Part shown: in pieces, positions 24,100 to 55,024 of the stretch | Numbering within the stretch: the stretch's first letter is position 1 | How the letters are laid out: each line of letters opens with the position of its first letter | From: Anaerolineales bacterium | GTDB taxonomy: Bacteria > Chloroflexota > Anaerolineae > Anaerolineales > UBA4823 | Assembly: GCA_020060465.1 (NCBI GenBank) | Contig: JAGVAD010000005.1 | Location: 46,003-110,002 of the forward strand | DNA length: 64,000 nucleotides | Reading direction: 5' to 3' | Translations under genes and position numbers: made by a program | Notes under the pieces: model-generated | What the model saw: only the letters and a program-made list of their open reading frames with translations | Told to the model about the DNA's origin: nothing | Databases searched by the model: none

Positions 24100-24185
24100 A
24101 GACAGTTCCCTGAGTTGAGCGCGCGCCAATGACCGTTTACGCGCCAACCTTGAAGCCAGTTTACCCCAGGGGAATGACAGGCGGC

Positions 24186-35094: not shown

Positions 35095-36870
35095 TCAATC
35101 CTGCGCCGCGCCGGGAAAGAGGCTGTTGCGCGCCCATAGAATAATGTACTGATTGGTGATCGGCGCTCTGCGGAAGGTCAGCCAGCGGATGAAATCCGGC
35201 GGAATGCCGCCTGACCAGCCCGGCAGCGTCCACCAGACAAAATCTTGGCCGCGATAAGTCTCAGAAACGCCGGGCGTCTCCGCCTCCAGCCGGGTGATCA
35301 GAACATCGGGCAGGTTATCGCGGTCAATGGCGCTGCTGAAACGAGCGTTTGGATAATCGCGCAAGAACCAGCGCAGGGAAGGCGTATCTACCAGAGAAAG
35401 AATATCAATGGAATTTTGCATTCCGGTCGCCCAGTTAGACAGATCTCTCAGCGTGGACTGCGCCAGGCGCGCCTGACCCGTGCCAGGCGGCGCGCCCCAT
35501 AACTCTGCAGGCTGGTTTGGGCGTAACTGCGTCGCTCCCCAAAGCGCGTTGGTGGAGTAAATCAGCAGGGTAACTGCCAGACCCCAAATCAAGCCATCCC
35601 GACTGATCTCCCAACTCCAGCCCAGCGCCACCAGGGTCGAGGTCAAGATGCCCAGCGCAAGGATGCCCGCCAGCACCACCAGCCGCAGGATATTCCACGG
35701 GATCGTAGCCGTGGCGATCAGATCTGGAGCGATCAATGTGTTGTAGAACAACGCAGCCAGGATCATGACCAGACATGCCTGTAAAAACACCATGATATGT
35801 GGCTTTTCTTGCGGCAAATACGCCGCCAACGCCGCCGCGGCAACTGCCCAGATGGGGACGATGCTCCAGATCAGGTCGCTGACCTGGCGTCCTGGATATA
35901 GCAACGTCAGCAACAGGCTTGCCGCAGCCCAGATGAGCAAACCAGGTTGGATGGCGGCGCCTTCGGCGGTGCGCTCGTCTCTGCCTATCTGGTTGATTAC
36001 GCCAATCGTTGCGAAGATGATCGCCAATAGCTCGAAGGTAAAGAGAGCCAGGAGAATGGTCGAAGGACTGATGTTCGAGGGGATCGCCCAGCCCTGGAAA
36101 TAGGCGATCAGGCTGGCAAAAAAACCAGCCAATCCTTGCGGAAAACGTCCCAAACCGGATCCCACCAGCAAAAACGCGCTCAGCCCGGCTACCCAGGCCA
36201 TGCCGACCTCTCGCCGACTGAAAAAGCTCAAAGTTGGCTCAGGATTAGATTGTTCGTGATGGTCTTGTAGCGGATCGGCGGCATGGAGACGCAGCCGCCG
36301 CTGGCGCAGGGCGCCCTCGGCCAGCAAAGCTGCCGCCAAACCGATTGCGCCGGGCAAGATTGCCGGGCCAGAGAGCAAAGCCAGGCTGCCGGTGACGCTA
36401 GCCCATATCGGCTGGCGAGCACGCCATAATCCCAGAGCCAGCAGGCTGAAGCTTAGCGCCAGTATGGGACCGCCTGCCTGGCGGGAGACTGTGGTCAACC
36501 CTGGGTCAAGCGCCAGACCGAAAGCCAGAAGCACAGCAGCGGATCGGCCCAGATCGCGGCGGAAGCAGTAAGGCGCCCAGACCAATAGAGCGCCAGCCAG
36601 AGCAGGCCAAAATCGCGCCAGAAAATCATTCGCTCCCAGGAAAATGAAGGTGAGACCGGTCAGGATGATATAAGCAGGCTGAGCGCCGCTGCCCTGGCTG
36701 GCGGCTGCTATTTCAGGGCGGGCGATCTGCAATGCTTGTAACGCCCAGCCAGCCTCTTGATCGGAGAGCGGAGCCGCCCCCAGGTTGAGCAGGCGCAGAG
36801 ATAACGCCAGCAGGAAGGCCAGGCTGTATAAAACAATTTCTACGGTGAGCTTTTGCGATTTATTCATCAT
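35095..36870 (-). CDS. polytopic membrane protein, GT-C/ArnT-like fold suspected (TIGR03663-like by recollection)
   Basis: About 590 aa with more than 12 predicted TM helices. The N-terminus is LRLLNLGAAPLSDQEAGW. Its ATG overlaps the stop of the upstream DUF2298 gene (ATGATGAATAA), which suggests translational coupling. Confidence 0.5.
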   Translation of the reverse strand: MMNKSQKLTVEIVLYSLAFLLALSLRLLNLGAAPLSDQEAGWALQALQIARPEIAAASQGSGAQPAYIILTGLTFIFLGANDFLARFWPALAGALLVWAPYCFRRDLGRSAAVLLAFGLALDPGLTTVSRQAGGPILALSFSLLALGLWRARQPIWASVTGSLALLSGPAILPGAIGLAAALLAEGALRQRRLRLHAADPLQDHHEQSNPEPTLSFFSRREVGMAWVAGLSAFLLVGSGLGRFPQGLAGFFASLIAYFQGWAIPSNISPSTILLALFTFELLAIIFATIGVINQIGRDERTAEGAAIQPGLLIWAAASLLLTLLYPGRQVSDLIWSIVPIWAVAAAALAAYLPQEKPHIMVFLQACLVMILAALFYNTLIAPDLIATATIPWNILRLVVLAGILALGILTSTLVALGWSWEISRDGLIWGLAVTLLIYSTNALWGATQLRPNQPAELWGAPPGTGQARLAQSTLRDLSNWATGMQNSIDILSLVDTPSLRWFLRDYPNARFSSAIDRDNLPDVLITRLEAETPGVSETYRGQDFVWWTLPGWSGGIPPDFIRWLTFRRAPITNQYIILWARNSLFPGAAQD

Positions 36871-39403
36871 TAAGGCCGGTGTATTCATAAATAACCACAG
36901 TGCCGGAACTGAATACAGGAGGCAAATTGCGAATGAATTTTGTCTCCACCAAACCGTTAGGGCAGGCGTCATCGTTGGCGTTGTATGTGGCGCGCTCTAG
37001 CGTCCCAACGACGACATAACGAATCGAATATTGATCCAGGATGAGGCGCGCTTCCTGCCAATTGCGGGTGCAATAAAGCCTTTCGATGTCGTCTTGTCGG
37101 CTGCCCATGGCTTTACCACTATTCTCGCCGCGCCATTGATTCTGATGACCAATCCAGCCCAGCACCGCGGGATGCCCAGAGAAGGTCGCCATTCTACCAT
37201 ATTCCCGGTAATCGCCGCCTTGATAATCCACTGCTTCAGCCAACACACCCGGCGGCGCAGCTTGCAAGAACTGGATCGCTTTCATTTCATCGGGTGATTG
37301 GCGCGCCAGATAGGCGCTGCTATCCAACGTCCATTGACCGGGGGCAAAACCGTTGGTTTTGCTCCATAAACCGAAAACAGGATAGACCAAACCAGCCGCC
37401 AACAGAGCGGTTATTCCCAGGCTGAACAAAGCGCGCAGACTGCCCCGCAATTCCATAACTAGAATCACTGCGCCGTAAGAGGCGGCGATGCTCCACACCT
37501 GCCAGGCGGTGAAATAGAACTTAAAAATCGTGTTCATGCGCCAGCCGAACAGGTCGCGCAGATAAAAGAATTCCGGCCCAACAACCAGGAGCGTCCCCAT
37601 CAGGATCAGTAAGACGGCAAAAGTTCGCGCCCGAAAGGGGGGCGATGCCTCTTGAGCTGAGGAATTGCGGCGATCGAAAGCGGTGAGCAGACCCAGGCAG
37701 AATGCCAGCAAAACCAACAGGGTGATCCAGCCCCCTGGGGACAGAAAGCGGCGTATCAGGGCGTTGCTAAATAGCTGGGCGCTGTCCTGCGCGGCCAGCG
37801 ATCCGAGGAACGGCGCGCGCGCTTCAGGGATCAGCAGGATGAGCGCGCCCAGGGTCAGCGATAAGAGCCACAACAGCAGCATAAAGCCCCCCGCCAGCCC
37901 CAGGCCTCGCGCCAGCCATTGGCGATCCGTCAGCGATCGGCTAAAGTAGACCAGATAAGCCAGGATTGGCGGCAGAAGCGTTCCGAACATCACCCACAAA
38001 TGAGCGCCGCGCGTGGGGTAGATCAGGTTGGGCAGAACGCCGCCCGCCTGAGACGAGAAGCTGAGATAAAAAGGCAGGTACAGGAGCACGCCGGCTAATC
38101 CCACAAACAGCCCAAACCATAAGAAATCCGCTGTCGCCTGCAAGATGGACTTCTCCCCTTGCAGCACAAAGCTCAGGGCGTAAGCGGAGGCTGCCAGCGT
38201 CAGAAAGAGGGGGAAATCCCAGATATTTAAGAACGCCATCCCGCCCAGCGCAACGGCAGCCAGCAATGCCGCTGCCGGGCTCAAGCGTAAGGGGGCGAAC
38301 TCGCTTCCCCGACTCAATCTCAAGCGCGGCCAGGGCTGTGGACTGCGACTGCCACCGAGCAGGAAGTTCAGGGCAATGGTCATGGCCAGCATGGCGAACG
38401 GCATGGCTAAGACGTGCGGGTGCAGATCGCCTAGCAGGTATGAGAAGAAGGGGAATTCGTCAATGATTTCTCTGGCGTTATTGGCCAGGTCGTAATCCTG
38501 CAAGACGCGCGATGCCCGCCACCACCACCAAAACCGCGTGGGTTGCCAGCTCAAAGGCAATGCCGGGGGTTGATTTAAGTCTTTGATATCCAGCCATTTC
38601 CAAAAGGCAGAGCTCAGCGCGCCAGTTTCATCCGCCGTCCAGAATAACCCGCGCGTATGCAGGCTGTGCAGAAAGCCTTCCAGGTTGCTGACGATCAACA
38701 GAAAGAATGGCGCCAGCAAAGGCGAGAGAATATGGCGCTGTGGTGCAAGATCACCCTCATTCGTCTGTCGGGCGACGGGCACAGAGGCGTTGAGCAAGTT
38801 ATACAACAATCCATAAGCGCCAATCGCGCTGAGCGCAAACACCAGGCTGACACCCAGGTTGAAGGCGATGGCGCCCGGCGTCCCTGAAATCATTGCCAGC
38901 ATAGCAACCAGCACGTAACCAAAGTAATAGTAAGAAATGGCATAACCCGAAAGCCAGGGATCATGCGGCGGAAAGGTGGGCGATTTCAGGATGGCGTTAA
39001 TAAAAGCCAGTTCCATGGGCTTTTCTGTGCCTACCGCCTCCGGGTTAGCCGCTCGCACGAGCGCCCATAGCGCAAAGGCCAACAGGAAGAGCACCTCTAC
39101 GACCAGGATCATGCGCCGCTGCGCTCTCAACCAGGCGAACATCTCTTGCGGGTGAACGCCCAGCAAAGCCCATAGGGTGAGTCCGCCCATCAGCGCGGCG
39201 GCGAAGAGCAACCCCGTCGGCTCGTTGCGCAGAATGCCCAGAGAAGCCAGCAGCCAGAAGAGAAAGCCCCAAAGCAGCAAGCCCAGGGCGCGGCTGACTG
39301 CATAGCCGCGATCCTTCAGCGCGGGGAGCAAGCGATAGGAGATGGGAAACGCCAACCAGCTCAGCCCGGTGACAACCAAATACCAGATCGCCCAATGACT
39401 CAA
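36860..39403 (-). CDS. DUF2298-type 'YYY-motif' polytopic membrane protein
   Basis: 847 aa. It has PPHDPWLSGYAISYYYFGY and a C-terminal soluble domain paralogous to the C-terminus of the 1771-aa neighbour. Confidence 0.6.
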   Translation of the reverse strand: MSHWAIWYLVVTGLSWLAFPISYRLLPALKDRGYAVSRALGLLLWGFLFWLLASLGILRNEPTGLLFAAALMGGLTLWALLGVHPQEMFAWLRAQRRMILVVEVLFLLAFALWALVRAANPEAVGTEKPMELAFINAILKSPTFPPHDPWLSGYAISYYYFGYVLVAMLAMISGTPGAIAFNLGVSLVFALSAIGAYGLLYNLLNASVPVARQTNEGDLAPQRHILSPLLAPFFLLIVSNLEGFLHSLHTRGLFWTADETGALSSAFWKWLDIKDLNQPPALPLSWQPTRFWWWWRASRVLQDYDLANNAREIIDEFPFFSYLLGDLHPHVLAMPFAMLAMTIALNFLLGGSRSPQPWPRLRLSRGSEFAPLRLSPAAALLAAVALGGMAFLNIWDFPLFLTLAASAYALSFVLQGEKSILQATADFLWFGLFVGLAGVLLYLPFYLSFSSQAGGVLPNLIYPTRGAHLWVMFGTLLPPILAYLVYFSRSLTDRQWLARGLGLAGGFMLLLWLLSLTLGALILLIPEARAPFLGSLAAQDSAQLFSNALIRRFLSPGGWITLLVLLAFCLGLLTAFDRRNSSAQEASPPFRARTFAVLLILMGTLLVVGPEFFYLRDLFGWRMNTIFKFYFTAWQVWSIAASYGAVILVMELRGSLRALFSLGITALLAAGLVYPVFGLWSKTNGFAPGQWTLDSSAYLARQSPDEMKAIQFLQAAPPGVLAEAVDYQGGDYREYGRMATFSGHPAVLGWIGHQNQWRGENSGKAMGSRQDDIERLYCTRNWQEARLILDQYSIRYVVVGTLERATYNANDDACPNGLVETKFIRNLPPVFSSGTVVIYEYTGLNDE

Positions 39404-39412
39404 GCGAGCACC

Positions 39413-42400
39413 TCAATCAGCGATGACTTCGTAAATCACGGTGTCGCCATCGCGATAGACTTCTAACCAAAATACGCCGTCGGCGGCTTCAAACTTGTCC
39501 AGCCCAGGGCCAGGATAATGCCCGCGCTCCTGTTGGCCTACGATGATATATCGAACCTGATATTTGCGCAAGAACTCCACAGCCGCGCCCAGGTCGTCGG
39601 TGAGGTAAAACTCATCCACTTCGCGGATGCGGTCGCTGATCCAGGCGGCTGGAATGACCGCCCGCTGCTGCTGCTGATGCCACTCCCAACCCACCACGCC
39701 GGGCAAGCCGGTGTAGATGCTAAAGCGGGAGCCCCAACGGTACAGGTTGCGCAGGTTGGCTTCGACGATCACCGGCGACCCTTTTATATGATCTTGTATC
39801 CAGCGAATGGCGCGATAATCCTGACTCAAATCCATGGGACCCCATTCATCGTTATAGACCGAATAGGGCATGAACGCCATGCCATCCAGGGTGTGCGGGG
39901 CGGCTTTGCTCATGCGGTCATCTATCTTGGCGGTGGTAGCCATGATTGGATATAGGGCTGCTCCGCTCACCAGACCAACCAACAGGATTTGCCAGCCGGC
40001 TCGCCAGGAGGGGCGCCAATCCGGTAGAGCGGGGATCACCCAGCCCAACGCAACAGCCGCGCTGATTGAAAACAGCGTCCACACCTGAAGATAAAACTTG
40101 AACACAGTGTTCATGCGCCCAATGTCGCCGCGCAATACAATAAGCTCGACCATCAAGGTCAGCGTCAGTCCAGTGCCAACCATGAACAAAACAAACCGCT
40201 TGGCGTCTGGCATTTCCGGGCGCAGCAGCAAGACGCCCGCCAGCGCCGCTAACGGCAGCGCCAGCCAGGCGATATATACATTGAACAGGTACAACCCTAA
40301 AACCAACAAGACGCCCAGGATCAGGACAAATTGTATCAGCCAGCGATAAGGCGCCAACCGGCGCAAAGCAGAGAGGGGCGTCTTCGCCAGCCAATCCCGC
40401 GTTTCCCATGCCATCCAGCTCAGGATGGCGAACAGGAACACCCCCCAATGGATAAGGTAAGAATAGGTGGGCGTGTGCGTGCCTTTCCAAAGGTCAATTT
40501 TGGTGTAACCGAGCGCATACCATTGGGCATAAGGCCGGAAAAGCAGCAGGGATAAACCTACTAACAAACCCGCTCCAATGAGCGCTGCCAGCGCGCTCAG
40601 AAAGCCTGGGCTGAGTTGCTCCAGGAAGGCGAACCTTTGCCGCCATGCATCAGGGAGTCGAAAGTAGCGTATCCAGGTGTACAGGACGATCACAATGGCT
40701 AGTGCCAGGTAGGTGGGCATATCCCAGGTGTTGGTGGGGCGCAAGACGCCAATTGCCAGCCCAGCCAGCCCGAACCAGGCGATCCCGCCGCCGATCTGTT
40801 TCCATTGACCTTTGCCTAATAAGAAGGCAACGATCAAACCTAAGGCCAGCAGGGTGAGCGGCAGGGCCAGCAGGTGGGCGTGCAGGTCGGCGTACAAAAC
40901 GGTAAAATAGGGAAATTCTGTGATGGGTTCGACATCTCCCGGCGCGGGGATCGCCCGGCTGGGGATCCAATACCAATCGCCCACGCCGTACGGCAGACGC
41001 GCCCCTTCCAAAACCTGGAAGAACCCTCGAATTGTCCATACCCAGAGAGTGGGCAGAGCCGCCCCCTCGATGTTTCCGCCAGGCGCGGCCACCCGCTGGA
41101 ATCCCTGGTAAAGCATACGCACCGTGCCGAGATTGCCCAGCACAGCCATCCCTAATGCAGCCGCCAGGCCGGGGATATAGGGCGAAATCCTGCCCGCTTC
41201 TACGGGCAAGGTTTTCGAAGCGCGCTGCGCCGCTGCTCCTTGCGCCAGGTTCCAGGCGGCGGAAAATGCGCCCAGGGCGATCAGGCTGAACAGGGTGGGC
41301 AGAATCAGGTTATATGCAATGGATGGAACAATGCCCAGCAGCTTGACCGGGACGCCGACCAGAACAAAGCCGTAATAATAATAGTTGAGATAACCGCCAG
41401 CGTACCAGGGGTCATAGGGCGGAAAGCTGACGCTCTTCAATACCGCGTTAAAGTAAGAAAAATCCATGGGCTTTTCGCCGCCCTTCCAGGGATGCCACAG
41501 ATCCGGGTTGCCCAAGCGTATCAGCAGGAATGCGACGAAAAAGGCCAGGCTCAAGCCTTCAATGCTCAGGAAATATTTTCTTTTCTGGCGCAGTTCAGAA
41601 CGGATTTCACCCCACTGACGACCATAAAGCCAGGCGCTGATGAAAGCCATCCCCAGCAAGACGATCCCGATGGTTAATTTCGTCGCCGGAATGCGAAGCG
41701 AACCGGCCAGCCAAACCAGATAAGACAGGACGAGCATTCCGGCGATGCGCGCCAATGGATAGCCGCGATCCTCCAGCCCAGGCGCAGCCAGGCGCAGCAG
41801 TGGGTAGGCGATCCAGCCCAATAAGGTAATGGTCAGATACCAGATCACCGCTGCCAGAAGAGGGTAACGGTTGTGCAGGGCGTTGACGTTGAACAGCTCG
41901 CTCCATGTGCCGCCCGCCTGCTGTTCTGCCCAACGCTCGTCGGGCAATTGCAGATCGCTGGGGTATGAACCAGCCCGCAGTGGAGCGACACGAATGACTT
42001 TCGACAAATCCACCGACTCTAAAATCGCCCGCGCTTTGGCTGAGTCGTAATCGCCGGTCTTCTGGAAGATAAATACTTTTGGATGGTCGTAAACCGTGAA
42101 AGCTTCTTCCGCAAACTGGTCGTTCAAGCGGATCGGCCCCAGGCGCGGCTCGGAGGTGAATGTCTCGACCAATTCAAACCCGAGGTTGCCCTTGAACATC
42201 CCAGGCTCGGCGATGCGATAGCAGTTCTCCACCGACATCTCGCTGGGGCAACCCAGCAGGTTGCGATAATAGATAGTGGTCATCGGGAAGCGTTCGGGCA
42301 GGCGCGGCAGACTGCCCCATTGACGGCTGGAGCTGATTAAGATGTAATCGGCTTCGTCCAGGATGCGTAGAAAACGCTCGCGCTTTTCGGGGTTTTCATC

Positions 42401-44728
42401 CCAGTACATGTTGAAGTTTAATTCGAGGGGATAGATGCCGCCGAACCCATCGTAGCCGTCCATGCGCAGCGGTAGGCCATCGTCCCATTCGCCTTCATTG
42501 GCGACGCCCAGTCCGTTGAGCGCAATCGCCGTGCCTTGCGGCGGTAGTTCCAGGGTCAGGCGATAGGTTTCGCCGCCATTGACCCGAATGGGCGCACCCA
42601 GGTTTAAGATGATCTCCCCACCTTCGGCGACCTCCTGCAACTGTAGCGAGGAATGGATGATTTCACCGCCCGGCTGCGAGCCGAGAACGGATTCTACAGC
42701 TATGCTCAGGCTCTCCGGGCGAGTCAGCGGGCGTGTATCGGGCGCCCCGCGGATGCGCAACTGGCTCAACTGACCGTTGGTTTGAGGCTGGAATTCGTAT
42801 ACGGGGCGATCTGCGGATGGCGGCTGAACAGGGGCTGCGGGCAAGGTCTGGCTGGTTGAAACGTCCGGTTCGGTTGCCAGCGGAGCGACAGTCACCCAGA
42901 CTTCGGCGCTAAAGCTGGAGGCAGGCGCAGAGCCGCTTTCCGCCACTTCAAGACTCAGGATATAAGATTGATCCGTTTCTAATTGGATAGGTGGATCGAG
43001 CGTCAGGATGATGTTTTTACCGCGTGAATCCTCTGCCGCAGCCAGGTTATCTTGCAAGACCGCCGTCGCCATAGGAGCAGCCGGGGAGGCAACATTTGTC
43101 AGCGCGAGCTTCAAGGTCACAATCTGACTTGCGCCGCTTTCATCTCGCACGCGGGGCAAAAGAACCTGCGCCAGCGCTCCGCTTGCCTTTGGGACAAACG
43201 TGGTTGTGAAGGGCGTCGTCGGCGTGATGCGAAAAGTATAAGGGAAAGGCAATATCTGATTGAAAACGCCATTGCCAGTTTGGATCGGCAAAGTGATCGG
43301 CCCGGGAATATTCTGATAAATCCAGCGAGAGGCGGCGATGCGCGTGATGGGGCGGGTGTAAATGCGCGAGAAGGCATAGGCGTAAGCATACGTGGCGAGC
43401 AAAACCATGCCTGCGAGCAGGATGGACACCGGGCGCGCCCATCGCAGGCGAACCAGTTTGCGCCTGGAGAGAGATTCTGCAACCTCAGTTACCTCCGTTT
43501 CGCCAGGCGCGCTGGATTGGCGAAGATTGAACAAGGCCAGGATCGCCCAGGCGGCAAAGATTGCCAGCGTTGGATAGATTGGCAGTTGATAACGCATGGT
43601 GGGGTTAAGCTGGATGGACTGCCAGGCGAAATACGCCGCCGTCCAGCTCCAGATCAGGCTATGGGCGAGCCATTGCTCTCGCTTCGCTTTCCAAACGGTC
43701 AGCAATCGCCAGCCTACCCATAAGAAACCCGTCCAGGCCAGGGCGCCTAACGGCAAACCCAGGCCCCACACAGTCAGATTCTGGAATGAAAACCAGATTG
43801 GGCGGCGCGCCCATTGCATATTGGGCGGAAAATCGAAATCCGGGCTGGCCTGGGCGCGCTGCGAGCGGATATTCTCCACCCATTGAGGGTTAGGCTTCAG
43901 ACCGAAGAAACCCGGCCCGCTGAAGGCATAGGGTTGCAACAGGCGAAACGTCAGCAAACTGAGGAACGCTGCCAGCGCCAGGTAAGCAAACAAACGCGGC
44001 CATTTGCTCTCACGCTCCTGCGCCGGTGTGCGCGCCAAAACGATGAGCATCGCCGCCGGCAGTGTAAAGGCGACCAGGACGGTGTTGATCTTAGAGGCGA
44101 CGGCCATGCCCAGGGCGACGCCAAAGGCTGTGCTGGGCCATAACAGCGATTCATCCACCCGGCTGCTGACGACTTGCACGGCGAAGTATAGCGCCAGGGT
44201 GGAGAAAAACGTGGTGAAGGTGTCCATGGTGAAGAAGTGCGACTGCTGAATTTGCAATACGGCTGCGGCAGAAAAAGCCATGCCCAGCAGCCCCACCCAT
44301 CTTCCATATAAACGTTTGCCAATCAGGTACACCAGGAAGACTGTCCCCAGGTCGGCCAGTGCAGAGAGCATACGGCCCATGTCGGTCATCTCTTGCCAGC
44401 CGGAGCCGCCATAGACCCATTCGACCAGATAGCGAGCCACAAACATGGGGAACGTGCCATAGACATAAAAGCCGTGCCCGCGGTTATGCGGGTTCAGGCT
44501 GGAATTTGCAGTGTCAAAATACGCCGAAAGACTTTCAACCGGCTGGATGTCTGTGCCTACCCAGACCAGAAAACGCTCATCGGGGTGCAAAAATTGATAT
44601 TCGCCCCAATCCAGTCCGGAAAAGCGAAAAAAGGCGGCTGCGCCTAAGATGAGCAGCACAAGGATGGTTTCAAGGATTGCATCGGTGAAGCGCCTGAACG
44701 GCGAGGAGGACGGTTGAGTGGATGTCAT
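39413..44728 (-). CDS. giant (1771 aa) fusion: GT39/PMT_2-like GT-C membrane domain + extracytoplasmic beta-rich region + DUF2298 'YYY' membrane domain
   Basis: The N-terminus carries FLHPDERFLVW, with a DE motif in the first loop typical of GT-C enzymes. The C-terminal half (from ~aa 1000) parallels the 847-aa protein, including PPYDPWYAGGYLNYYYYGF and the terminal RYIIVGQQERGHY region. Confidence 0.6.
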   Translation of the reverse strand: MTSTQPSSSPFRRFTDAILETILVLLILGAAAFFRFSGLDWGEYQFLHPDERFLVWVGTDIQPVESLSAYFDTANSSLNPHNRGHGFYVYGTFPMFVARYLVEWVYGGSGWQEMTDMGRMLSALADLGTVFLVYLIGKRLYGRWVGLLGMAFSAAAVLQIQQSHFFTMDTFTTFFSTLALYFAVQVVSSRVDESLLWPSTAFGVALGMAVASKINTVLVAFTLPAAMLIVLARTPAQERESKWPRLFAYLALAAFLSLLTFRLLQPYAFSGPGFFGLKPNPQWVENIRSQRAQASPDFDFPPNMQWARRPIWFSFQNLTVWGLGLPLGALAWTGFLWVGWRLLTVWKAKREQWLAHSLIWSWTAAYFAWQSIQLNPTMRYQLPIYPTLAIFAAWAILALFNLRQSSAPGETEVTEVAESLSRRKLVRLRWARPVSILLAGMVLLATYAYAYAFSRIYTRPITRIAASRWIYQNIPGPITLPIQTGNGVFNQILPFPYTFRITPTTPFTTTFVPKASGALAQVLLPRVRDESGASQIVTLKLALTNVASPAAPMATAVLQDNLAAAEDSRGKNIILTLDPPIQLETDQSYILSLEVAESGSAPASSFSAEVWVTVAPLATEPDVSTSQTLPAAPVQPPSADRPVYEFQPQTNGQLSQLRIRGAPDTRPLTRPESLSIAVESVLGSQPGGEIIHSSLQLQEVAEGGEIILNLGAPIRVNGGETYRLTLELPPQGTAIALNGLGVANEGEWDDGLPLRMDGYDGFGGIYPLELNFNMYWDENPEKRERFLRILDEADYILISSSRQWGSLPRLPERFPMTTIYYRNLLGCPSEMSVENCYRIAEPGMFKGNLGFELVETFTSEPRLGPIRLNDQFAEEAFTVYDHPKVFIFQKTGDYDSAKARAILESVDLSKVIRVAPLRAGSYPSDLQLPDERWAEQQAGGTWSELFNVNALHNRYPLLAAVIWYLTITLLGWIAYPLLRLAAPGLEDRGYPLARIAGMLVLSYLVWLAGSLRIPATKLTIGIVLLGMAFISAWLYGRQWGEIRSELRQKRKYFLSIEGLSLAFFVAFLLIRLGNPDLWHPWKGGEKPMDFSYFNAVLKSVSFPPYDPWYAGGYLNYYYYGFVLVGVPVKLLGIVPSIAYNLILPTLFSLIALGAFSAAWNLAQGAAAQRASKTLPVEAGRISPYIPGLAAALGMAVLGNLGTVRMLYQGFQRVAAPGGNIEGAALPTLWVWTIRGFFQVLEGARLPYGVGDWYWIPSRAIPAPGDVEPITEFPYFTVLYADLHAHLLALPLTLLALGLIVAFLLGKGQWKQIGGGIAWFGLAGLAIGVLRPTNTWDMPTYLALAIVIVLYTWIRYFRLPDAWRQRFAFLEQLSPGFLSALAALIGAGLLVGLSLLLFRPYAQWYALGYTKIDLWKGTHTPTYSYLIHWGVFLFAILSWMAWETRDWLAKTPLSALRRLAPYRWLIQFVLILGVLLVLGLYLFNVYIAWLALPLAALAGVLLLRPEMPDAKRFVLFMVGTGLTLTLMVELIVLRGDIGRMNTVFKFYLQVWTLFSISAAVALGWVIPALPDWRPSWRAGWQILLVGLVSGAALYPIMATTAKIDDRMSKAAPHTLDGMAFMPYSVYNDEWGPMDLSQDYRAIRWIQDHIKGSPVIVEANLRNLYRWGSRFSIYTGLPGVVGWEWHQQQQRAVIPAAWISDRIREVDEFYLTDDLGAAVEFLRKYQVRYIIVGQQERGHYPGPGLDKFEAADGVFWLEVYRDGDTVIYEVIAD

Positions 44729-44737
44729 AAGAGCGAT

Positions 44738-46942
44738 TCAATCGGTTGCGGATCCAGGCTCAGAAGATTGCGGCGGGACGAAAAATAAGCGAAAGTCTTT
44801 GGTTGGCGTCTTCGACGGATAGAAAGACAACCAGCCTTGCGGATACATCTGGCGCAGGGCGTCCGCCGCTGCCTGATCGTCTTTGTTGAGGATAAATAAC
44901 TTGGCGCGCGTATCCGGCAGAGTGGTCTCCAGTTCCTGAACGAATAACTCATAATCTCTTCCGGGGAAACCGGCATTCAACGCCACCAGGCGGGTATCTA
45001 CCCAATGGGGATAACCCATCACCCAGACAGTATCTGGGCTTCCAATGGTTTCGGCAAACTCTTTGGCGATGGCGCCGATTTCGGAAGAGTTCCAGGAAGC
45101 CATACGGTATTGTTGATAATAATCGTCAAAGACCAGTTGATAATCCTGAATGGCCGCCAGACCCAGGAGCAGAACGGCGAGCGCCCAGGCCAGGCGCGCG
45201 CCCTCTGGGGTTTTGATCCCCGCTTGAATGCTGTTAATCAGCCCATCCAGGGCAAAGCCAGCCATCAGAAACACGGGGATCATCGCCCCTCCGGCGCGAT
45301 ACAGGTTGGGGTTTTCGGCGGGGAAAGCCAACGCCAACGTGGAAGGGATCTGTAGCAATGGGATAGAGATCAGCAAGAACAGATCCAGCCAATTGCGCCT
45401 TTTTATATAACGTATCAACAGCGCGGCTGCGCCCAGGTAAAACAACCCTCCAGCGATGACGCCCAGCGCCGGACGGTGCGGTATCGAAATCGGCCAGATT
45501 TCGCCGTTATCCACGCTGAACATCCCCAACGCCCGCCAGGTGTTCTTGAGAAAAATCCAGACCGCCGGCGCTTCCAGCGGACGCTCCACGTCGCCGATGC
45601 GCGACAGGGTGCGAAACAAAAAGGCATCCGGCTGCGCCAGGCCGTAGCGCAACATGGGCAGGAATAATGCCAGGCTGACGGCCACCACCGCCAGCAGCGA
45701 AACGACGACGAAACGCAGGCGCGTCATAGAACGATGGTGAAGCAGATATAACCCAAAGGCTATCACCGTTACGAGCGGCAAAATGCGATCCGGCGTATAA
45801 CCGTAGAACCCGATTCCCAGCGCTGCGCCAGCCAGGATAAAGTCATTTCGCTTGCCGGTGCGCAAGCCGCGCGCCAGGTAATAGAGGGTCGCCGCTGTGA
45901 ATAGAAAATAGAAAGGCAAGCGCAGGCCAAAACGCGAGACGACGTTCGGCCAATAGGCTACCCCTGCCAACAAAGTCGCCAGCCAGGCAACCCGTCGCCC
46001 GCCCAGTTCGACGCCCAAGCCAAAGAGGAAGGGCAGCGCAGCCAGGCCGATCAATACTGAGGTCAATTTGAGCAACATAAAGCCCAAAGGAATGTTGAAC
46101 CATATATGAAGAGCGGCGTTCAGGTAAAAAATCAGCGCCTCGCGCCCGCCGTTGGTGGGGAAAAAGATCAGGTGCTGACCGTTCAGCACATGCAGCACAT
46201 CCAGGATTTTCTCGGCATGGTCACTGTTCATCTCCGGCGGCACTTCCCCCAGGCGATAAAAGCGGAAGAACAAAATCGCTGCAACCGCCAGACATCCGGC
46301 GAGGGTTTGAAGGTTTATGGTAATCGTCCAACTGGGGAGACGGAACATTGCTCGCAGACGATCCTGCCAGGTTGGGGCGTTGGACGGCGAAACCCAGAAC
46401 GCCCGCACGATGAACGCAAGTCCGGCGAGCAGCAGGCCAAGATTAAGCGGGTTGAATTCCAGCCCGCCAAAAGCTGCGAAAGCGATGACCAACAGAGCCA
46501 GCCCTGCCGCCAGGTCGAATAGATTGAGCACCGGCGGGTCGAGCGTTTCCGCGCTCGGCCTGGGCGATGCAGCCTGCCATTCACCGCTCGCGGCAGCCCA
46601 GGTCAACGCGCCTGCAGCCAGCATCAAAAAAACGCCCCCCACCATCAGAAACGGGCTATCACCCAACCCCATACTCGCCTGAGCGAATAACGCCAGTAAA
46701 AGGGCGGTGATGCTCTTCAAGGGCAGGCGACGCACCTCCATAGGAGATTCTTCAGCTTGCGGAGGTTTAGGTTTCCGCGCAAGCTCAGCAGGAGGCGCTT
46801 CAGGCTCCGGCGGCAGTTCGACGCGCGGATATTTCTGCGGTCTCAGTCGCGATTTGATGTAATCCAGAATGCTGGGTTCTTCCATAAGCTTTCGTTGAGG
46901 CGCGGCGCGACCTTTCAGACCCCTGATTATAAACCAATCCAC
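44738..46942 (-). CDS. GT39/ArnT-like (PMT_2) polytopic glycosyltransferase-family membrane protein
   Basis: 734 aa. A cytoplasmic Pro/Glu-rich N-terminus is followed by more than 12 TM helices, with MNSDHAEKILDV...FFPTNGGREALIFYL in the first loop region. Confidence 0.55.
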   Translation of the reverse strand: MDWFIIRGLKGRAAPQRKLMEEPSILDYIKSRLRPQKYPRVELPPEPEAPPAELARKPKPPQAEESPMEVRRLPLKSITALLLALFAQASMGLGDSPFLMVGGVFLMLAAGALTWAAASGEWQAASPRPSAETLDPPVLNLFDLAAGLALLVIAFAAFGGLEFNPLNLGLLLAGLAFIVRAFWVSPSNAPTWQDRLRAMFRLPSWTITINLQTLAGCLAVAAILFFRFYRLGEVPPEMNSDHAEKILDVLHVLNGQHLIFFPTNGGREALIFYLNAALHIWFNIPLGFMLLKLTSVLIGLAALPFLFGLGVELGGRRVAWLATLLAGVAYWPNVVSRFGLRLPFYFLFTAATLYYLARGLRTGKRNDFILAGAALGIGFYGYTPDRILPLVTVIAFGLYLLHHRSMTRLRFVVVSLLAVVAVSLALFLPMLRYGLAQPDAFLFRTLSRIGDVERPLEAPAVWIFLKNTWRALGMFSVDNGEIWPISIPHRPALGVIAGGLFYLGAAALLIRYIKRRNWLDLFLLISIPLLQIPSTLALAFPAENPNLYRAGGAMIPVFLMAGFALDGLINSIQAGIKTPEGARLAWALAVLLLGLAAIQDYQLVFDDYYQQYRMASWNSSEIGAIAKEFAETIGSPDTVWVMGYPHWVDTRLVALNAGFPGRDYELFVQELETTLPDTRAKLFILNKDDQAAADALRQMYPQGWLSFYPSKTPTKDFRLFFVPPQSSEPGSATD

Positions 46943-46943
46943 C

Positions 46944-47747
46944 TTATAACTTACGGGCGATGTAAAAAGTGCAGACCCCGTCGGCGCATTCTTGCGGAAA
47001 ATAACGACGGCGGGTATAGCGTTCGGTCAACCCCAGATTCCAGCGTTGAGGAACCAATATCCATCGCCCGGTGAGCCAGTGGCTAACCAGCGATGGCAGG
47101 CCGAAATAATGTCCCCATTCGGTGACATGCAAAGCCTGCGGGGGGTAATAATGCCAGTATTGTTCCAAAGCAAAGCCGCAGCGTTCCAGCCTGGCCTGCC
47201 AGACTTCGGGCGGATCGCAGTGATAATGGCGCGAAATACGGTTGAAGAAACTTCGATAAGCATCCGCCAATGGGCGCAAACGCGCCTGATCCAGGAAGTT
47301 GCTCACCGATAAATTCGCCAGGAAGCGGTCATTGGGGCCGCAGAAGACAAAGGGAGCGCCCGGCTTGAGCACCCGCGCCGTTTCCGCCAGCACATTCTCC
47401 ACCTGGGGGATATGCTCCAACACCGAATTGCTTAATGCGCTGCCAAAAACACTATCGGGAAATGGCATACGCTGACCATCGCCCAGCGTCAACAAGCGAT
47501 AACTTTGGCGCCGGCGCGCCTCGGCCATGGGTTTCGGCCAGGGATCAATGCCCACATCAATGGGTTGATCGAAGGCCACGCTGGCGAAGTGACCGTCGCC
47601 GCTGCCCACGTCCAGGATCGGGCGGGGTAAGTCTATGCGAGTGTAGAAGCTGGCTTCCACGGCGCGCATCAATGCGCGGAAGTAAGGCAACTCCCGCAAG
47701 TGAAGCCAGAGAAAGTCTTTGGATTGCGCCGGTTGCATTGCGTCCAT
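46944..47747 (-). CDS. class I SAM-dependent methyltransferase
   Basis: Motif I ILDVGSGDGHF, plus post-I and motif II spacing (Methyltransf_11-like). Confidence 0.7.
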   Translation of the reverse strand: MDAMQPAQSKDFLWLHLRELPYFRALMRAVEASFYTRIDLPRPILDVGSGDGHFASVAFDQPIDVGIDPWPKPMAEARRRQSYRLLTLGDGQRMPFPDSVFGSALSNSVLEHIPQVENVLAETARVLKPGAPFVFCGPNDRFLANLSVSNFLDQARLRPLADAYRSFFNRISRHYHCDPPEVWQARLERCGFALEQYWHYYPPQALHVTEWGHYFGLPSLVSHWLTGRWILVPQRWNLGLTERYTRRRYFPQECADGVCTFYIARKL

Positions 47748-47753
47748 GTCGGA

Positions 47754-48950
47754 TTAGAGATTGGGTTGTTGCCGTGCGGCAAGATACGCTCGCACTTTTG
47801 CTCCGCTGCGCGCCAGTTCGAAAACCCTTTCATATTCTTCGGCCACAGCTTGCGGCGTGGAAAGGCGCAGGAGATTTTCCGGCTGGCCGCGAAAGCGCTT
47901 GGGGTTTTCCAGGATGGCGATGATCGCCTCGGCCAACGCCTGGCTGTCTCGTACGGGGACAACCAGGCCGGCGCCGGTCTTGGTCGCCGGTACACGCACC
48001 CCCGGCAGGTCGGAAGCCACCACTGGAGCGCCGCAGCTTATCGCTTCTACCTGTACCATGCCAAACGACTCGGTGCTGTTCAGGCTGGGCAGCGCCAACA
48101 CCTCGCACTCATGAAAGAAAACAGCCATTTCCTCCGGCGAGGCAACTCCCAAAAAAGTCCAGTGATCTTTGAGCGGCTCAATCATTGAGAGCACACGCTG
48201 TCCATATTCTTCTTCGCCGACCACGTTCTGGTAAGGACCGACAAAAAGCACTCGCGCCTGGGGGAAACGTTCTAAAACCCGCGGCAACGCCTGAACCAGA
48301 ACCTCTACGCCCTTTTCAGTCGCCAGGCGGGCTGCCATGCCAATCACCCGTTGATCAGGTCGGATGGCGTATTTTTCCCGAAAAGCGGCGCGCTGCGCAG
48401 CGGTGACGGGTTCCAGTTCCACCGGCGGGTAAATCGGCAGCAGTTTATCCAAATAATGGCGCAGGAAAGGCGAATGTTCCGCGTAATCGCGAGTATTGTG
48501 TACGATCACGTTCGCTGCCCTGGCGGCAATATGATTGGTGAGGTTAGAGACGCGGTTGGCAATGGAATGGATGAAGCCGCGCGGCAGAAGCAGGTCGCAG
48601 TGATAGGTCAACACCACCGGCTTGCCTAGCAGACGGCTGAGCAATGCGATATAGGCGGCGTCGAACTGCGGCACGTGCAGATTTACCACATCAGCCTGCC
48701 GCGCCAGTTTCCATGCCCAGATGGGCATGGCCGGCATGATGACGCCTTTGCTGATGTGGAACAGCACATCTGGGCGAACCACCTGCACGCCATCGCAGAT
48801 TTCACGCTGCAACAGGCGTTTATCAAAACGCGAGGTGAGAATGGTAACCTGATGGCCGCGCGCCGCCAGCGCGCGCGCCTGGCGCTCGGCGTAGATCGTC
48901 AAACCCGAATAATGGGGGCGATAATAAGTCAACGCAATCAAAATACGCAT
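47754..48950 (-). CDS. glycosyltransferase family 4 (GT-B, group 1)
   Basis: An N-terminal YYRPHYSGLT segment and a C-terminal EX7E-type region ESFGMVQVEAISCGAPVVASDLPG. Confidence 0.75.
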   Translation of the reverse strand: MRILIALTYYRPHYSGLTIYAERQARALAARGHQVTILTSRFDKRLLQREICDGVQVVRPDVLFHISKGVIMPAMPIWAWKLARQADVVNLHVPQFDAAYIALLSRLLGKPVVLTYHCDLLLPRGFIHSIANRVSNLTNHIAARAANVIVHNTRDYAEHSPFLRHYLDKLLPIYPPVELEPVTAAQRAAFREKYAIRPDQRVIGMAARLATEKGVEVLVQALPRVLERFPQARVLFVGPYQNVVGEEEYGQRVLSMIEPLKDHWTFLGVASPEEMAVFFHECEVLALPSLNSTESFGMVQVEAISCGAPVVASDLPGVRVPATKTGAGLVVPVRDSQALAEAIIAILENPKRFRGQPENLLRLSTPQAVAEEYERVFELARSGAKVRAYLAARQQPNL

Positions 48951-48956
48951 AAAAAA

Positions 48957-49973
48957 TTAATCGGATTCTCCTGGCTTGGGGGGCGAGATTTGGCGCACTT
49001 CACGAAAGACTCCAGATAATGTGAGACCGTCTTTCAGCAAAGCAAACGCGCCGATCACGCCGGTGATTAAATAATTCGTCAGGTGCGCCGTCAGAGCCGC
49101 CGCCAGAGCAGTGGAAGCATCCAGCTTGAAGGCTGAGAGAGCGCCCATAATGGCAAGCTCCAACACGCCCACCGCCCCAGGCGATGACGGCGCAGCAATG
49201 CCCAAAGCCATCACGCTCACCGTGAACGGCGCCCAGAGCAAGCGTGCTTGGGGGAAAAAAGCGCGCAGCAGCACATAAAATTGGCCGACGGCAATCGCCC
49301 AGTTCAGCGTCATCAAAAAGAGCGCTTTTAAGAAACGCTGACCATCCACCAGAGCGGCTAATCCGGCGAAGAAAGCGTCTAATTGTTGTGCTCCGATAAA
49401 TCTGCGCAAGATGGGCAGGCGCACAGAGAGCGCCTCGAACTGTCGAGAAGTCCAGGCTTGATTGCGCGCCAGCAAATGCAGTCCAAACAGACCTGCCAGC
49501 ACCAATGCCCCGGCGCTGATCGCCGCTTCTCTGGCAAGGCCGCCGCCGACGACAAAGGGCAGCGTAGTCAAAAGCAGCCCGGCCGCAAAGGCGACATCCA
49601 TCGCCCGTTCGATCAGCACGGTCGAAACCACCTGCAGAAACTCCAGGTTTGCCTTGCGGCCAAGCAGAAAAGCGCGCCCAACTTCTCCCAAACGGAAGGG
49701 CAGCAGGTTGTTCAGCAGATAACCTTCGTTTAAAGTCAAAAATACCTGGCTATAGCTGGCTTGTTCTTGCAGCAAGGCGCGCCAGACCAGACCGCGTACC
49801 CCGATCCACACCAGGCTGATGAGGAATAATAAGGCAATGTAGCCATAGTCAGCCAGTTGCAGCGCCTGCCCCAGGCGCTGGAAGTCAACCCAATAAAAGA
49901 TGACCGCCAACGCTAACAGGCTTACAGCAATGCCGGGGAGTATTTTTCGCCAGTCCTGCCGCGTCAAGCTCAT
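48957..49973 (-). CDS. UPF0104 / LPG-synthase-TM-like (flippase-like) membrane protein
   Basis: 338 aa with about 8 TM helices. The pattern LNNLLPFRLGEVGRAFLLGRK is typical of this family. Confidence 0.55.
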   Translation of the reverse strand: MSLTRQDWRKILPGIAVSLLALAVIFYWVDFQRLGQALQLADYGYIALLFLISLVWIGVRGLVWRALLQEQASYSQVFLTLNEGYLLNNLLPFRLGEVGRAFLLGRKANLEFLQVVSTVLIERAMDVAFAAGLLLTTLPFVVGGGLAREAAISAGALVLAGLFGLHLLARNQAWTSRQFEALSVRLPILRRFIGAQQLDAFFAGLAALVDGQRFLKALFLMTLNWAIAVGQFYVLLRAFFPQARLLWAPFTVSVMALGIAAPSSPGAVGVLELAIMGALSAFKLDASTALAAALTAHLTNYLITGVIGAFALLKDGLTLSGVFREVRQISPPKPGESD

Positions 49974-49980
49974 GCCCGGG

Positions 49981-51783
49981 CTAATCCTCTTGCAGACGCA
50001 GCACCGCTAAGAAGGCTTCTTGAGGGATTTCGACGTTGCCCACCATCTTCATGCGCTTTTTACCGCGCTTTTGTTTTTCCAGCAGTTTTTTCTTACGGGT
50101 GATGTCGCCGCCGTAGCATTTGGCAAGCACATCTTTACGCAGCGCCTTGACGTTGGCGCGTGAGATGACCCGTCCGCCAGCGTACGCCTGAATGGGGACG
50201 ACGAACAACTGCTGCGGGATAATATCTTTGAGTTTGGAGATCGCCGCCTGACCTTTGTGATAAGCATCTTCGCGATGAACAATCGTCGCCAGGGCGTCCA
50301 CCGGCTCTTCGTTCACCAGGATTTCCAGTTTCACCAGATCTTCCGGGCGATATTCAGCAAATTGATAATCCAATGAAGCATAACCGCGCGTCTTTGATTT
50401 CAGTTGATCGAAGAAATTCACAATTAGTTCGGAGAGCGGAATTTCAAACTGTAACAGCACGCGGTTCGGAGCCGGGTATTCCTGGCCGGTAAAGACGGCG
50501 CGCCGTTGGGTGGCCAGCTCCATCACCACCCCATAAAATTCGGTCGGGGTAAAAATCTGGATTTTCATCCACGGCTCGCGGATTTCGGCGATCAAATCCT
50601 CTTTAGGCAGTTCAGCCGGAGAGTCGATCGTGATGACCTCGCCGTTGCGCATCAGCACCTCATATTCCACCGAAGGCGCAGTAAACACAACATCCAGGTC
50701 ATATTCCCGCTCCAGCCTTTCCTGGATGATCTCCATGTGGAACATACCCAGGAAACCGCAGCGGAAGCCAAACCCCAGCGCCTGCGAGGTCTCTGGCTCG
50801 AAAACCAGCGAGGCGTCGTTGAGTTGCAGCTTCTCTAATGCATCTTTCAAATCTTGATAATCGTCGGCTTCGGACGGATAGACGCCAGCAAAGACCATCG
50901 GCTTGACCTTGCGGTAACCGGGCAGTGGTTCCGGCGCCGGACGAGCAGCCAGCGTAATCGTATCGCCTACGCGACATTCGCGCACCGTTTTCAGCCCCGT
51001 GGCGATATAGCCCACTTCGCCGGCGGAAAGCTGCCCGGTTGTGTGCAGGTCAGGCGCAAAGACGCCGATCTCCACCGGTTTGAGCGTGGCGCCGCTGGCC
51101 ATCAACAACAAGGTGTCGGTCGGACATACCTCGCCATCCATTACACGTACATAGGCCACCACGCCTTTGTATGGGTCATAATGCGAGTCAAATATTAGAG
51201 CGCGTAATGGGGACTGCACATCCCCCCTGGGCGGTGGTACATGCTGAACAATCGCCTCCAGCACCGCCTCTATATTCAGCCCGGCTTTTGCCGAAATGCG
51301 CAAAATTTGTTCGGCGGGCGTCCCCAGCAGATTGCTAATCTCCTCAGCCACTTCATCCGGTCGGGCGGAAGGCAAATCAATCTTGTTGATGACCGGAATG
51401 ATTTCCAGGTCCGACTCAAGCGCCAGGTACAGGTTCGCCAGCGTTTGGGCTTCAACGCCCTGTGAGGCGTCCACCACCAGCAAAGCGCCCTCACAGGCTG
51501 CCAGGGCGCGGCTGACTTCATAGCCAAAATCAACGTGACCCGGGGTATCAATCAGGTTTAGCTCATAGGTTTTGCTATCTTGAGCGGTATAGCTCATGCG
51601 CACCGCCGAAGCCTTAATCGTCACGCCCTTCTCGCGCTCTAAATCCATGCTGTCCAGCACTTGCTCGGTCATCTCTCGCTCAGAAATCGTGCCGGTCAGT
51701 TGCAGCAGGCGGTCTGCCAGGGTGGATTTGCCGTGGTCAATATGCGCGATAATGCAGAAATTGCGGATATGCTCAAGATTCAT
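49981..51783 (-). CDS. lepA: translation elongation factor 4
   Basis: [30 protein letters not shown] and NKIDL, plus the LepA-specific C-terminus. The start is at ATG 51783. Confidence 0.95.
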
Positions 51784-51875
51784 AGACGAATAGCAAGTAT
51801 ACCTTGATTTGGTCGGCAATCGTTAAAATAAAGCTAAAGTTTTGCGCGCCCGGATTGGATTTAAAATGCCGCAAG

Positions 51876-53407: not shown

Positions 53408-53477
53408 TCCAGATGATTTTACTACGGATTTGACCGAGAGTCTCAGTGCAGCCAGACGCGGGGCGTCTGTTCAAGGT

Positions 53478-54944: not shown

Positions 54945-55024
54945 TGCGCCCTCCACAAATAAATGACTGAAATCCCGCTGGCCTCGCGACTTTGAGAAAG
55001 CCACACGCCTCGATCTACAGCGTC

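Follow-up and report, generated by a model that had tools for sequence, protein, structure and literature searches.

A conserved gene cluster of PMT_2 and DUF2298 membrane proteins in Anaerolineae, a possible assembly line for an envelope glycoconjugate

What do the very large membrane proteins of the DUF2298 family do, and which genes work with them? The question is raised by a stretch of 64,000 nucleotides from an Anaerolineales bacterium (assembly GCA_020060465.1, contig JAGVAD010000005.1), here called the window, in which seven neighbouring genes, named G1 to G7 in reading direction, encode a UPF0104 membrane protein, a GT4 glycosyltransferase, a methyltransferase and four large polytopic proteins. 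A preliminary description of the sequence had read them as a complete pathway in which a glycoconjugate is primed, modified, flipped and transferred or polymerised. The products were analysed by profile searches, structure prediction and the comparison of related loci. The four large proteins are predicted to hold five GT-C modules, which are G4, the N-terminal and C-terminal modules of G5 (G5-N and G5-C), G6 and G7. We tentatively propose, with a confidence that falls just short of even, that the locus is an assembly line for an envelope glycoconjugate with two modules, where G1 to G3 would make a primer and G4 to G7 would extend it.

The profile scores of G6 agreed with its earlier assignment as a DUF2298 'YYY' protein. 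It reached 354 bits against DUF2298 (PF10060, cut-off 27.8) and 453 bits against TIGR03662 (cut-off 300), and the YYYxG pattern is present in SYYYFGY at residues 157-163. G5-C is a clear member as well, with 372 bits against DUF2298 and 508 bits against TIGR03662 (residues 957-1768), and carries NYYYYG at 1115-1120 (YYYY at 1116-1119, again with YYYxG) and GGERPMD. The DUF2298 family comprises 6927 clusters at 50% identity (E <= 1e-3). An AlphaFold2 model of G6 was built with 46 homologues (predicted local distance difference test score, pLDDT, 83; predicted TM-score, pTM, 0.89) and consists of a multi-pass transmembrane (TM) module followed by a C-terminal globular domain of 174 residues. When the model was compared with the PDB by Foldseek, the top eight matches were all GT-C enzymes (E 6e-6 to 6e-5, probability 1.00), namely STT3 in three oligosaccharyltransferase (OST) complexes, the C-mannosyltransferase DPY19, the arabinosyltransferase AftA, which had the highest TMt of 0.48, and the archaeal AglB. 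The next-ranked matches were pyrophosphatases and transporters with a probability below 0.25. The C-terminal globular domain of G6 matched the C-terminal domain of AglB (3vu0) with a probability of 1.00 and a TMt of 0.51. STT3, AglB, PglB and DPY19 share with the DUF2298 model the multi-pass TM module and the C-terminal extracytoplasmic globular domain, but have no detectable sequence similarity to DUF2298 even when profiles are used, and the TM-scores are 0.26-0.41. The placement of the predicted DUF2298 fold near STT3, AglB, DPY19 and AftA is new. Since profile-profile comparison gave no relationship of DUF2298 to the G4 and G7 families, this is a placement by predicted fold.

G7 had been described as a polytopic protein of about 590 residues, and it was found to have 590 residues and a predicted GT-C fold. 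No Pfam family matched it, PMT_2 included. Its sole family match was TIGR03663, the family of the archaeal protein Agl23 and now named 'flippase activity-associated protein Agl23', and since the score was 39.6 bits (cut-off 126, N-terminal 130 residues only) G7 is not a member. Near their N-terminus, TIGR03663 proteins carry a DE dipeptide that is invariant and also an HGP tripeptide, neither of which is present in G7. In the same N-terminal region, G7 has D36-Q-E38 after TM1 (D36 in at least 90% of the sequences, E38 invariant), which is a D-x-E motif rather than the DE dipeptide. The AlphaFold2 model of G7, made from database homologues (pLDDT 88, pTM 0.88), gave 22 top Foldseek matches that were all GT-C superfamily folds. 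The best was ArnT (GT83; 5f15, E 3e-8, TM 0.49/0.53), which also has its acidic motif after TM1 near the N-terminus, and ALG12, ALG9, STT3, PglB and AglB were found besides; EmbC, Pmt4, PimE and AftD matched more weakly (E 5e-3 to 0.5). With hhalign, G7 was aligned to the G4 family over the N-terminal 178 columns (probability 73%, E 3e-5). G7 is predicted to be an ArnT-like GT-C protein and a divergent relative of TIGR03663/Agl23, and its recognition as ArnT-like is also new. Lipid A, the acceptor of ArnT, should be absent from a Chloroflexota bacterium that is free of lipopolysaccharide.

For G4 and G5 the GT-C assignment was made with sequence profiles, through PMT_2 for G4 and G5-N and through the DUF2298 homology to G6 for G5-C. 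The profiles confirmed that G4 is a PMT_2 (GT39/ArnT-like) protein and G5 a fusion of PMT_2 and DUF2298, as had been described, the score of G4 being marginal. G4 matched PMT_2 with 27.7 bits (cut-off 26.1) at residues 292-431; about 200 extra N-terminal residues with three to four TM segments lie ahead of the canonical module, and a soluble domain of 136 residues follows it. G5-N matched PMT_2 with 40.8 bits at residues 119-257. Neither G4 nor G5 matched TIGR03663 at E<0.01, though HPDE is present in G5-N. The central region of G5 contains no TM segments. Its first part is variable and its last 160 residues or so (747-905) form a conserved block with two invariant cysteines; the region had no Pfam match and no sequence match in the PDB. 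Each of the large proteins closes with a soluble domain of 136-176 residues that has no family assignment, and a Pfam scan at E <= 1 of five soluble or N-terminal regions gave no match. The four proteins add up to 3923-3942 residues, in line with the almost 4000 residues stated before. That these are mostly membrane-embedded applies to the polytopic modules, but not to the TM-free stretch of about 500 residues in G5 (residues ~453-956) nor to the soluble C-terminal domains. When the PDB was searched with the single sequences of G4 to G7, and with profiles for G6 and G7, triosephosphate isomerase, light-harvesting complex proteins, claudin and lectin were returned and dismissed as noise, and no solved relative of the four proteins was found by sequence or profile.

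The preliminary description had made its pathway depend on a structural similarity of the membrane proteins to GT-C folds, and this similarity was found in the models of G6 and G7 and in the PMT_2 matches of G4 and G5-N. Acidic residues are conserved after the first canonical TM segment in each type of module. H48-P49-D50-E51 of G5-N is invariant in 32 orthologues and lies directly after TM1, S240-D241-H-A-E244-K245 of G4 is invariant in 35 orthologues and lies just after a TM helix, G7 has the D-x-E motif, and the DUF2298 modules have PxLxDRGY, in which D31 of G6 is conserved to at least 90%. The placement relative to TM1 was read from the secondary structure of the models and from hydropathy. 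One or more acidic residues in the first extracytoplasmic loop after TM1 are the usual catalytic position of GT-C enzymes, and the conserved residues are plausibly the active sites.

The conservation of the cluster was followed in 80 loci, one genome per species, nearly all of them labelled Anaerolineae or Chloroflexota. The window proteins were compared with the open reading frames (ORFs) of each locus with G6 as the anchor (42-56% identity across the 80 loci), and each gene was counted only in the loci long enough to show it. G5 was present in 62 of 64 loci, G4 in 53 of 55, G7 in 66 of 71, G2 in 44 of 50 and G3 in 40 of 51, and the order G2-G3-G4-G5-G6-G7 was kept in about 80 Anaerolineae genomes, with identities of 45-55%. 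Together with displaced copies, fusions and occurrences in other Chloroflexota classes, this bears out the co-conservation that the earlier pathway had presupposed. However, cmk follows G7 in 59 of 65 loci, plsC is present in 51 of 62 and a large histidine kinase in 39 of 56, which makes these genes nearly as syntenic as those of the cluster, and the collinearity is therefore in part vertical inheritance. Synteny alone was dismissed as proof of an operon for this reason, which applies to lepA as well, and the weight of the evidence was laid on displaced copies and fusions. The lepA gene was found upstream of the cluster in three further loci (L071, L076 and L085), where it adjoins G1 in the first two and is separated by a PMT_2 gene in L085. 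Although its adjacency is conserved, lepA is not part of the pathway.

Two loci contain G4-G5-G6 as a displaced block. In L052 its neighbours are an Fe-S/CCG protein on one side and a Ser/Thr kinase on the other, and in L079 (Candidatus Villigracilis adiacens) it follows an ArsR regulator and is itself followed by an 815-residue protein and a fusion of a methyltransferase and a GT2 domain (12595-16497 of that locus). The GT2 domain resembles AglJ and the dolichyl-phosphate hexose synthases, below the cut-off, and the fusion protein could be the synthase that supplies the GT-C proteins with donors. Its nearness to the displaced block is an indirect hint, and the only one, at lipid-phosphate-linked sugar donors. 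For the 815-residue protein neither a Pfam match nor a relative in the other 80 loci was found, and it did not resemble the G7 and G4 profiles.

Fusions were observed in further lineages. In L085, which represents a second Anaerolineae lineage, G5 and G6 are joined into a PMT_2-DUF2298-DUF2298 protein of 2434 residues, and a homologue of G5-N, soluble domain included, occurs as a free-standing protein. The order there is lepA, PMT_2 (629 residues), UPF0104, GT4, methyltransferase, the fusion, DUF2298 (794 residues), a 595-residue protein and PMT_2::NHL; the gene content of the cluster is retained and its order changed. Ardenticatena has PMT_2, a cupin, PMT_2::DUF2298 (1484 residues), DUF2298 (771 residues), a weak PMT_2 protein (571 residues) and PMT_2::NHL. 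Roseiflexus has a PMT_2::DUF2298::DUF2298::TPR protein of 2677 residues and then DUF2298 (948 residues). These arrangements suggest a conserved core of PMT_2::DUF2298 and a free DUF2298 protein, usually with further PMT_2/ArnT-like proteins, which extends beyond Anaerolineae into Ardenticatenia and Chloroflexia. While the GT4, UPF0104 and GT-C kinds of enzyme are known, this Chloroflexota-wide core with its recurrent fusions is new.

Several features of the relatives differ from the window. PMT_2 proteins fused to NHL beta-propellers close the cluster in Ardenticatena (L084 13025-16216, 1063 residues) and in L085 (21622-24657, 1011 residues), and the window has no PMT_2::NHL gene. In at least 16 loci the GT4 gene is directly preceded by a gene for a nucleoside diphosphate-sugar epimerase/dehydratase, which is placed between UPF0104 and GT4 wherever this part of the locus is visible, and 18 loci have a second methyltransferase gene between G3 and G4. 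In the loci L002-L081 the projected distance between G5 and G6 is often about 400 nt (median 383, interquartile range 41-451), compared with 9 nt for the window. Either a small extra ORF or a longer N-terminus of G6, which exceeds 900 residues in some orthologues, could account for it.

The three smaller proteins were identified by Pfam and NCBIfam profiles as the UPF0104 protein, the GT4 glycosyltransferase and the methyltransferase that had been described. G1 reached 131 bits against PF03706 (E 7e-38, cut-off 33.4) and 80.8 bits against TIGR00374, 'flippase-like domain' (cut-off 43.2). It is polytopic with about six hydrophobic segments and corresponds to the flippase-like domain of MprF without an attached synthase domain. 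By these scores G1 is a member of UPF0104/LPG_synthase_TM (COG0392) and a putative flippase. G2 contains both GT4 domains, Glycos_transf_1 with 111 bits and Glyco_transf_4 with 61 bits. It reached no equivalog cut-off in NCBIfam and stayed below that of the GlcN_PG_synth model (46.8 bits, cut-off 480). Its closest solved relatives are PimA (E 2e-18), PimB' and MshA, mostly through the C-terminal nucleotide-sugar domain. A match of G2 to PF20706, 'GT4-conflict', with 36 bits was dismissed, as it is far below the generic GT4 scores and has no defence context. G3 matched Methyltransf_11 with 59 bits, and its NCBIfam matches were all sub-threshold.

For the pairing of a GT4 with a UPF0104 protein there is a precedent. 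A flippase role of UPF0104/COG0392 proteins in glycosylation pathways has been predicted (PMC5898192). In the operons gpgSDF of P. aeruginosa and hexSDF of C. difficile, a GT4, a deacetylase and a UPF0104 protein lead to GlcN-phosphatidylglycerol and to an aminohexosyl glycolipid, respectively, and the UPF0104 protein is the predicted flippase for these glycerolipid-based glycolipids (PMC12713373). The cluster resembles the two operons in that a GT4-type synthase adjoins a UPF0104/COG0392 predicted flippase and a small-molecule-modifying enzyme (PMC12713373). It differs from them in that a methyltransferase takes the position of the deacetylase, which is missing here, and in its GT-C partners, which the operons lack. 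In Roseiflexus (L082 24690-25625), a gene of the PIG-L family, which is GlcNAc-lipid deacetylase-like, is found on the other strand at a distance of about 3 kb from the DUF2298 genes and recalls the deacetylase of the gpgSDF/hexSDF-type operons.

The seven ORFs were found on the minus strand at the positions given before (Table 1). At the junction of G6 and G7, which reads CTTAATGATGAATAA, the G6 stop codon at 36860-62 and the ATG of G7 at 36867 lead to an overlap of 8 nt, ATGATGAATAA. The remaining intergenic gaps, taken from the longest ORFs, are 6, 6, 1, 9 and 9 nt. In the Anaerolineales metagenome-assembled genome GCA_030017765.1, which is 99% identical, the genes were called with 338, 398, 267, 715, 1771, 847 and 590 residues. 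The orthologue alignment places the conserved N-terminus of G4, MEEPSILDY, at Met20 of the long ORF. Both this N-terminus and the GenBank call indicate that G4 probably starts at Met20, which makes the gap between G3 and G4 58 nt instead of 1 nt. The tight packing described earlier therefore held for the other small gaps and the one overlap, but probably not between G3 and G4, and it also runs on into lepA and cmk. Nearly all genes from about 0 to 55 kb of the window are on the minus strand, so that co-direction alone is weak evidence. A promoter scan gave promoter-like sites at the number expected from shuffled sequence. Terminator-like sites were in modest excess, almost all of them inside coding sequence and none at a junction of the cluster genes, and the excess probably reflects the T-rich coding of membrane proteins. 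The plus-strand AT skew reaches about +0.2 across the cluster (36000-50000), while most of the remaining window stays close to 0, which indicates a T-rich coding strand as expected for membrane proteins rich in Phe, Leu and Ile.

Table 1. Positions in the window of the seven cluster genes, their predicted modules and the flanking genes (aa, amino acid residues; SAM, S-adenosylmethionine)
Feature	Position	Strand	Product
lepA (EF4 GTPase), flank	49981..51819	minus	GTP_EFTU + LepA_C; 7 nt upstream of G1
G1	48957..49973	minus	338 aa; UPF0104 / LPG_synthase_TM membrane protein
G2	47754..48950	minus	398 aa; soluble GT4 (GT-B fold, retaining) glycosyltransferase
G3	46944..47747	minus	267 aa; class I SAM-dependent methyltransferase
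G4	44738..46885	minus	715 aa from Met20 (probable start); predicted PMT_2-type polytopic GT-C protein
G4, longest ORF	44738-46942	minus	734 aa if GTG at 46942 is used
G5	39413-44728	minus	1771 aa; PMT_2 + DUF2298
G5-N, predicted GT-C module (PMT_2 type)	43289..44728	minus	residues ~1-480
G5, central soluble region	41861..43288	minus	residues ~481-956
G5-C, predicted DUF2298 / Chlor_Arch_YYY GT-C module	39413..41860	minus	residues 957-1771
G6	36860..39403	minus	847 aa; free-standing DUF2298 / Chlor_Arch_YYY protein
G7	35095..36867	minus	590 aa from ATG 36867; predicted ArnT-like GT-C; longest ORF 35095-36972
cmk (cytidylate kinase), flank	34370..35065	minus	Cytidylate_kin 236 bits; ~29 nt downstream of G7

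How could these proteins work together? In the assembly line that we propose, G2 would transfer a sugar from a nucleotide sugar to a membrane lipid on the cytoplasmic face, most likely to a glycerolipid, the kind of acceptor known from PimA and GpgS. O-methylation of the sugar or the head group may be the role of G3, and G1 would bring the glycolipid across to the outer leaflet. Outside, the five GT-C modules would use polyprenyl-phosphate-linked sugars, with the donor GT2 encoded elsewhere, and would build a polymer on the flipped primer or on an acceptor linked to the wall. Different linkages would be formed by the modules of the PMT_2/ArnT-like kind and by the STT3/AftA-like DUF2298 modules. 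The proposal draws on the gene content, the predicted folds of G6 and G7, the acidic motifs, the co-conservation and the fusions; we infer the lipid acceptor, the flipping step, the type of donor, the order of the steps, the target of the methylation and the nature of the product.

Polymer builders, for example those of lipomannan (LM), lipoarabinomannan (LAM) and arabinogalactan (AG), typically comprise many GT-C enzymes. The mycobacterial assembly of phosphatidylinositol mannosides (PIM), LM and LAM and of AG would be the functional analogue of the cluster. In mycobacteria and corynebacteria, the GT4 enzymes PimA and PimB' start on a membrane lipid in the cytoplasm, and after flipping, the intermediate is extended outside by a number of large GT-C proteins (PimE, MptA-C, EmbA-C and AftA-D) with polyprenyl-phosphate sugars. 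G2 has its closest solved relatives in PimA and PimB', and AftA, EmbC, PimE and AftD are among the fold matches of G6 and G7. The two systems differ in the GT-C families, which are GT87, GT53 and others there and DUF2298 and PMT_2 here, in the fusion of two GT-C modules in one protein of 1771 residues and in the Chloroflexota host. Moreover, the similarity of G2 to PimA is mainly that of the nucleotide-sugar domain, and a phosphatidylinositol acceptor is without support here.

Several points weigh against the proposed assembly line. The flanking cmk, plsC and histidine kinase genes come close to the synteny of the cluster, as described above. Near the GT-C core of Ardenticatena and Roseiflexus there is no gene for a GT4, a methyltransferase or a UPF0104 protein; the two modules are for this reason tied less closely to each other than the members of the GT-C core are among themselves, and may be independent. 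No GT2 polyprenyl-phosphate sugar synthase, the usual supplier of the donors of GT-C enzymes, was found in the cluster or the 64-kb window, nor was a nucleotide-sugar gene. The Foldseek matches have modest TM-scores, which range over 0.26-0.48 for G6 and lie near 0.5 for G7. STT3, AglB and DPY19, to which DUF2298 is structurally closest, are protein glycosyltransferases, and the TPR and NHL fusions in the relatives hint at protein acceptors. Full-text literature searches turned up two incidental mentions and no functional study of DUF2298, PF10060 or TIGR03662, in agreement with the earlier statement that the family has no assigned function. Finally, Agl23, the only studied relative of G7, has been reported as a flippase and not as a transferase (PMC11182771). 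Of the pathway described before, the precedent for GT4 with UPF0104, the GT-C folds and the co-conservation stood. Its completeness was not borne out, as the missing donor synthase and nucleotide-sugar genes show, the link between the modules was weakened, and the linear order of priming, methylation, flipping and polymerisation is one that we infer.

The protein-glycosylating neighbours of DUF2298 lead to the first of the other explanations, a bacterial O- or N-glycosylation apparatus instead of a lipoglycan builder. The PMT_2/ArnT/ALG-like modules G4, G5-N and G7 would then add or extend sugars outside, and the DUF2298 modules would transfer the sugar or glycan to secreted, S-layer or sheath proteins. 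The match of the C-terminal domain of G6 to AglB fits such a transfer, and G7 matches ALG12 and ALG9, which extend the lipid-linked oligosaccharide before STT3 acts. TPR, fused to DUF2298 in Roseiflexus and other Chloroflexales, and NHL, fused to a neighbouring PMT_2, are typical protein-binding modules, and the PMT_2 family includes protein O-mannosyltransferases. In contrast, G5 and G6 have no STT3 Pfam match at E<0.01 and no WWDYG motif (searched as WWD[YWF]G), and AftA, a polysaccharide builder, matches about equally well. Known bacterial systems need one GT-C protein and not five, and the adjoining GT4 and UPF0104 pair points to a glycolipid of the glycerolipid type. We regard this explanation as unlikely, though with an appreciable chance. 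It has a more far-reaching form, to which we give a slim chance, in which DUF2298 would be a new OST-like GT-C family that, with its PMT_2/ALG-like partners, would do in bacteria and archaea what the luminal pathway does in eukaryotes. The ALG/ArnT-like GT-C proteins would lengthen a lipid-linked glycan outside, and the STT3-like DUF2298 modules would pass it en bloc to protein or wall acceptors. If true, this could include the still unidentified transferase of archaeal O-glycosylation.

A second explanation, which we consider rather improbable, is that two unrelated functions lie side by side. G1 to G3 would make a stand-alone glycolipid, a membrane modifier like GlcN-phosphatidylglycerol, G4 to G7 would act separately, and their adjacency would be due to vertical inheritance in Anaerolineae. 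The gpgSDF and hexSDF operons are indeed self-contained glycolipid operons (PMC12713373), the GT-C core was found without G1 to G3 in L052 and L079 as well as in Ardenticatena and Roseiflexus, and lepA, cmk and plsC are equally syntenic. Yet UPF0104, GT4 and the methyltransferase occur again beside the GT-C genes in the deeply rearranged L085, and the gaps of 6-9 nt in the window suggest translational coupling. In a third explanation, some of the large proteins, above all G7 and less certainly G4, would translocate lipid-linked sugars instead of transferring them. Their model is Agl23 of Haloarcula hispanica, described as a putative hexose-P-dolichol flippase, which after purification reportedly translocated lipid-linked Man5GlcNAc2 in proteoliposomes and rescued a yeast rft1 deletion (PMC11182771). 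We consider this very unlikely, since the TIGR03663 match of G7, although its only family match, is far below the cut-off, G7 retains its invariant acidic motif where GT-C enzymes canonically have their catalytic residues, together with an ArnT-like predicted fold, and the cluster already holds the flippase-like G1.

Some genes near the cluster were also recorded. Directly after cmk are three tandem genes for PlsC-type acyltransferases (32058-34339, minus strand; 254, 248 and 257 residues, PF01553), of which the relatives keep one to three at the same place, and which could act on acyl chains of membrane lipids or glycolipids. Downstream of plsC is the sensor histidine kinase of 1101 residues with the architecture dCache-HAMP-GAF-PAS-HisKA-HATPase (28669-31974, minus strand), which keeps this position in the 39 loci counted above. 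Just upstream of lepA, at 51876-55040 on the minus strand, genes for an MttB-family (trimethylamine methyltransferase-like) protein, a small SAM-dependent methyltransferase and a 'Metalloenzyme' superfamily protein are found with gaps of 70, -4 and 56 nt. Farther away on the same strand, the ATPase of an ABC transporter carries a universal stress protein (Usp) domain fused to its C-terminus (22204-24147), beside two ABC permease genes and a two-component system, and a protein of 990 residues combines a NACHT NTPase with a C-terminal FGE-sulfatase (formylglycine-generating enzyme-like) domain (16862-19834), an unusual STAND-type architecture.

The envelope of the Chloroflexota and the coat of these filamentous, lipopolysaccharide-free bacteria are poorly understood, and the locus is among the most conserved envelope-related gene sets in Anaerolineae. 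With the predicted GT-C placement of DUF2298, the acidic residues, the partner gene set and cultured relatives become handles for its study. If the product is a lipoglycan or a wall polymer, it would be a Chloroflexota analogue of LAM or arabinogalactan, whereas a protein glycan as the product would make DUF2298 a new oligosaccharyltransferase-like family.

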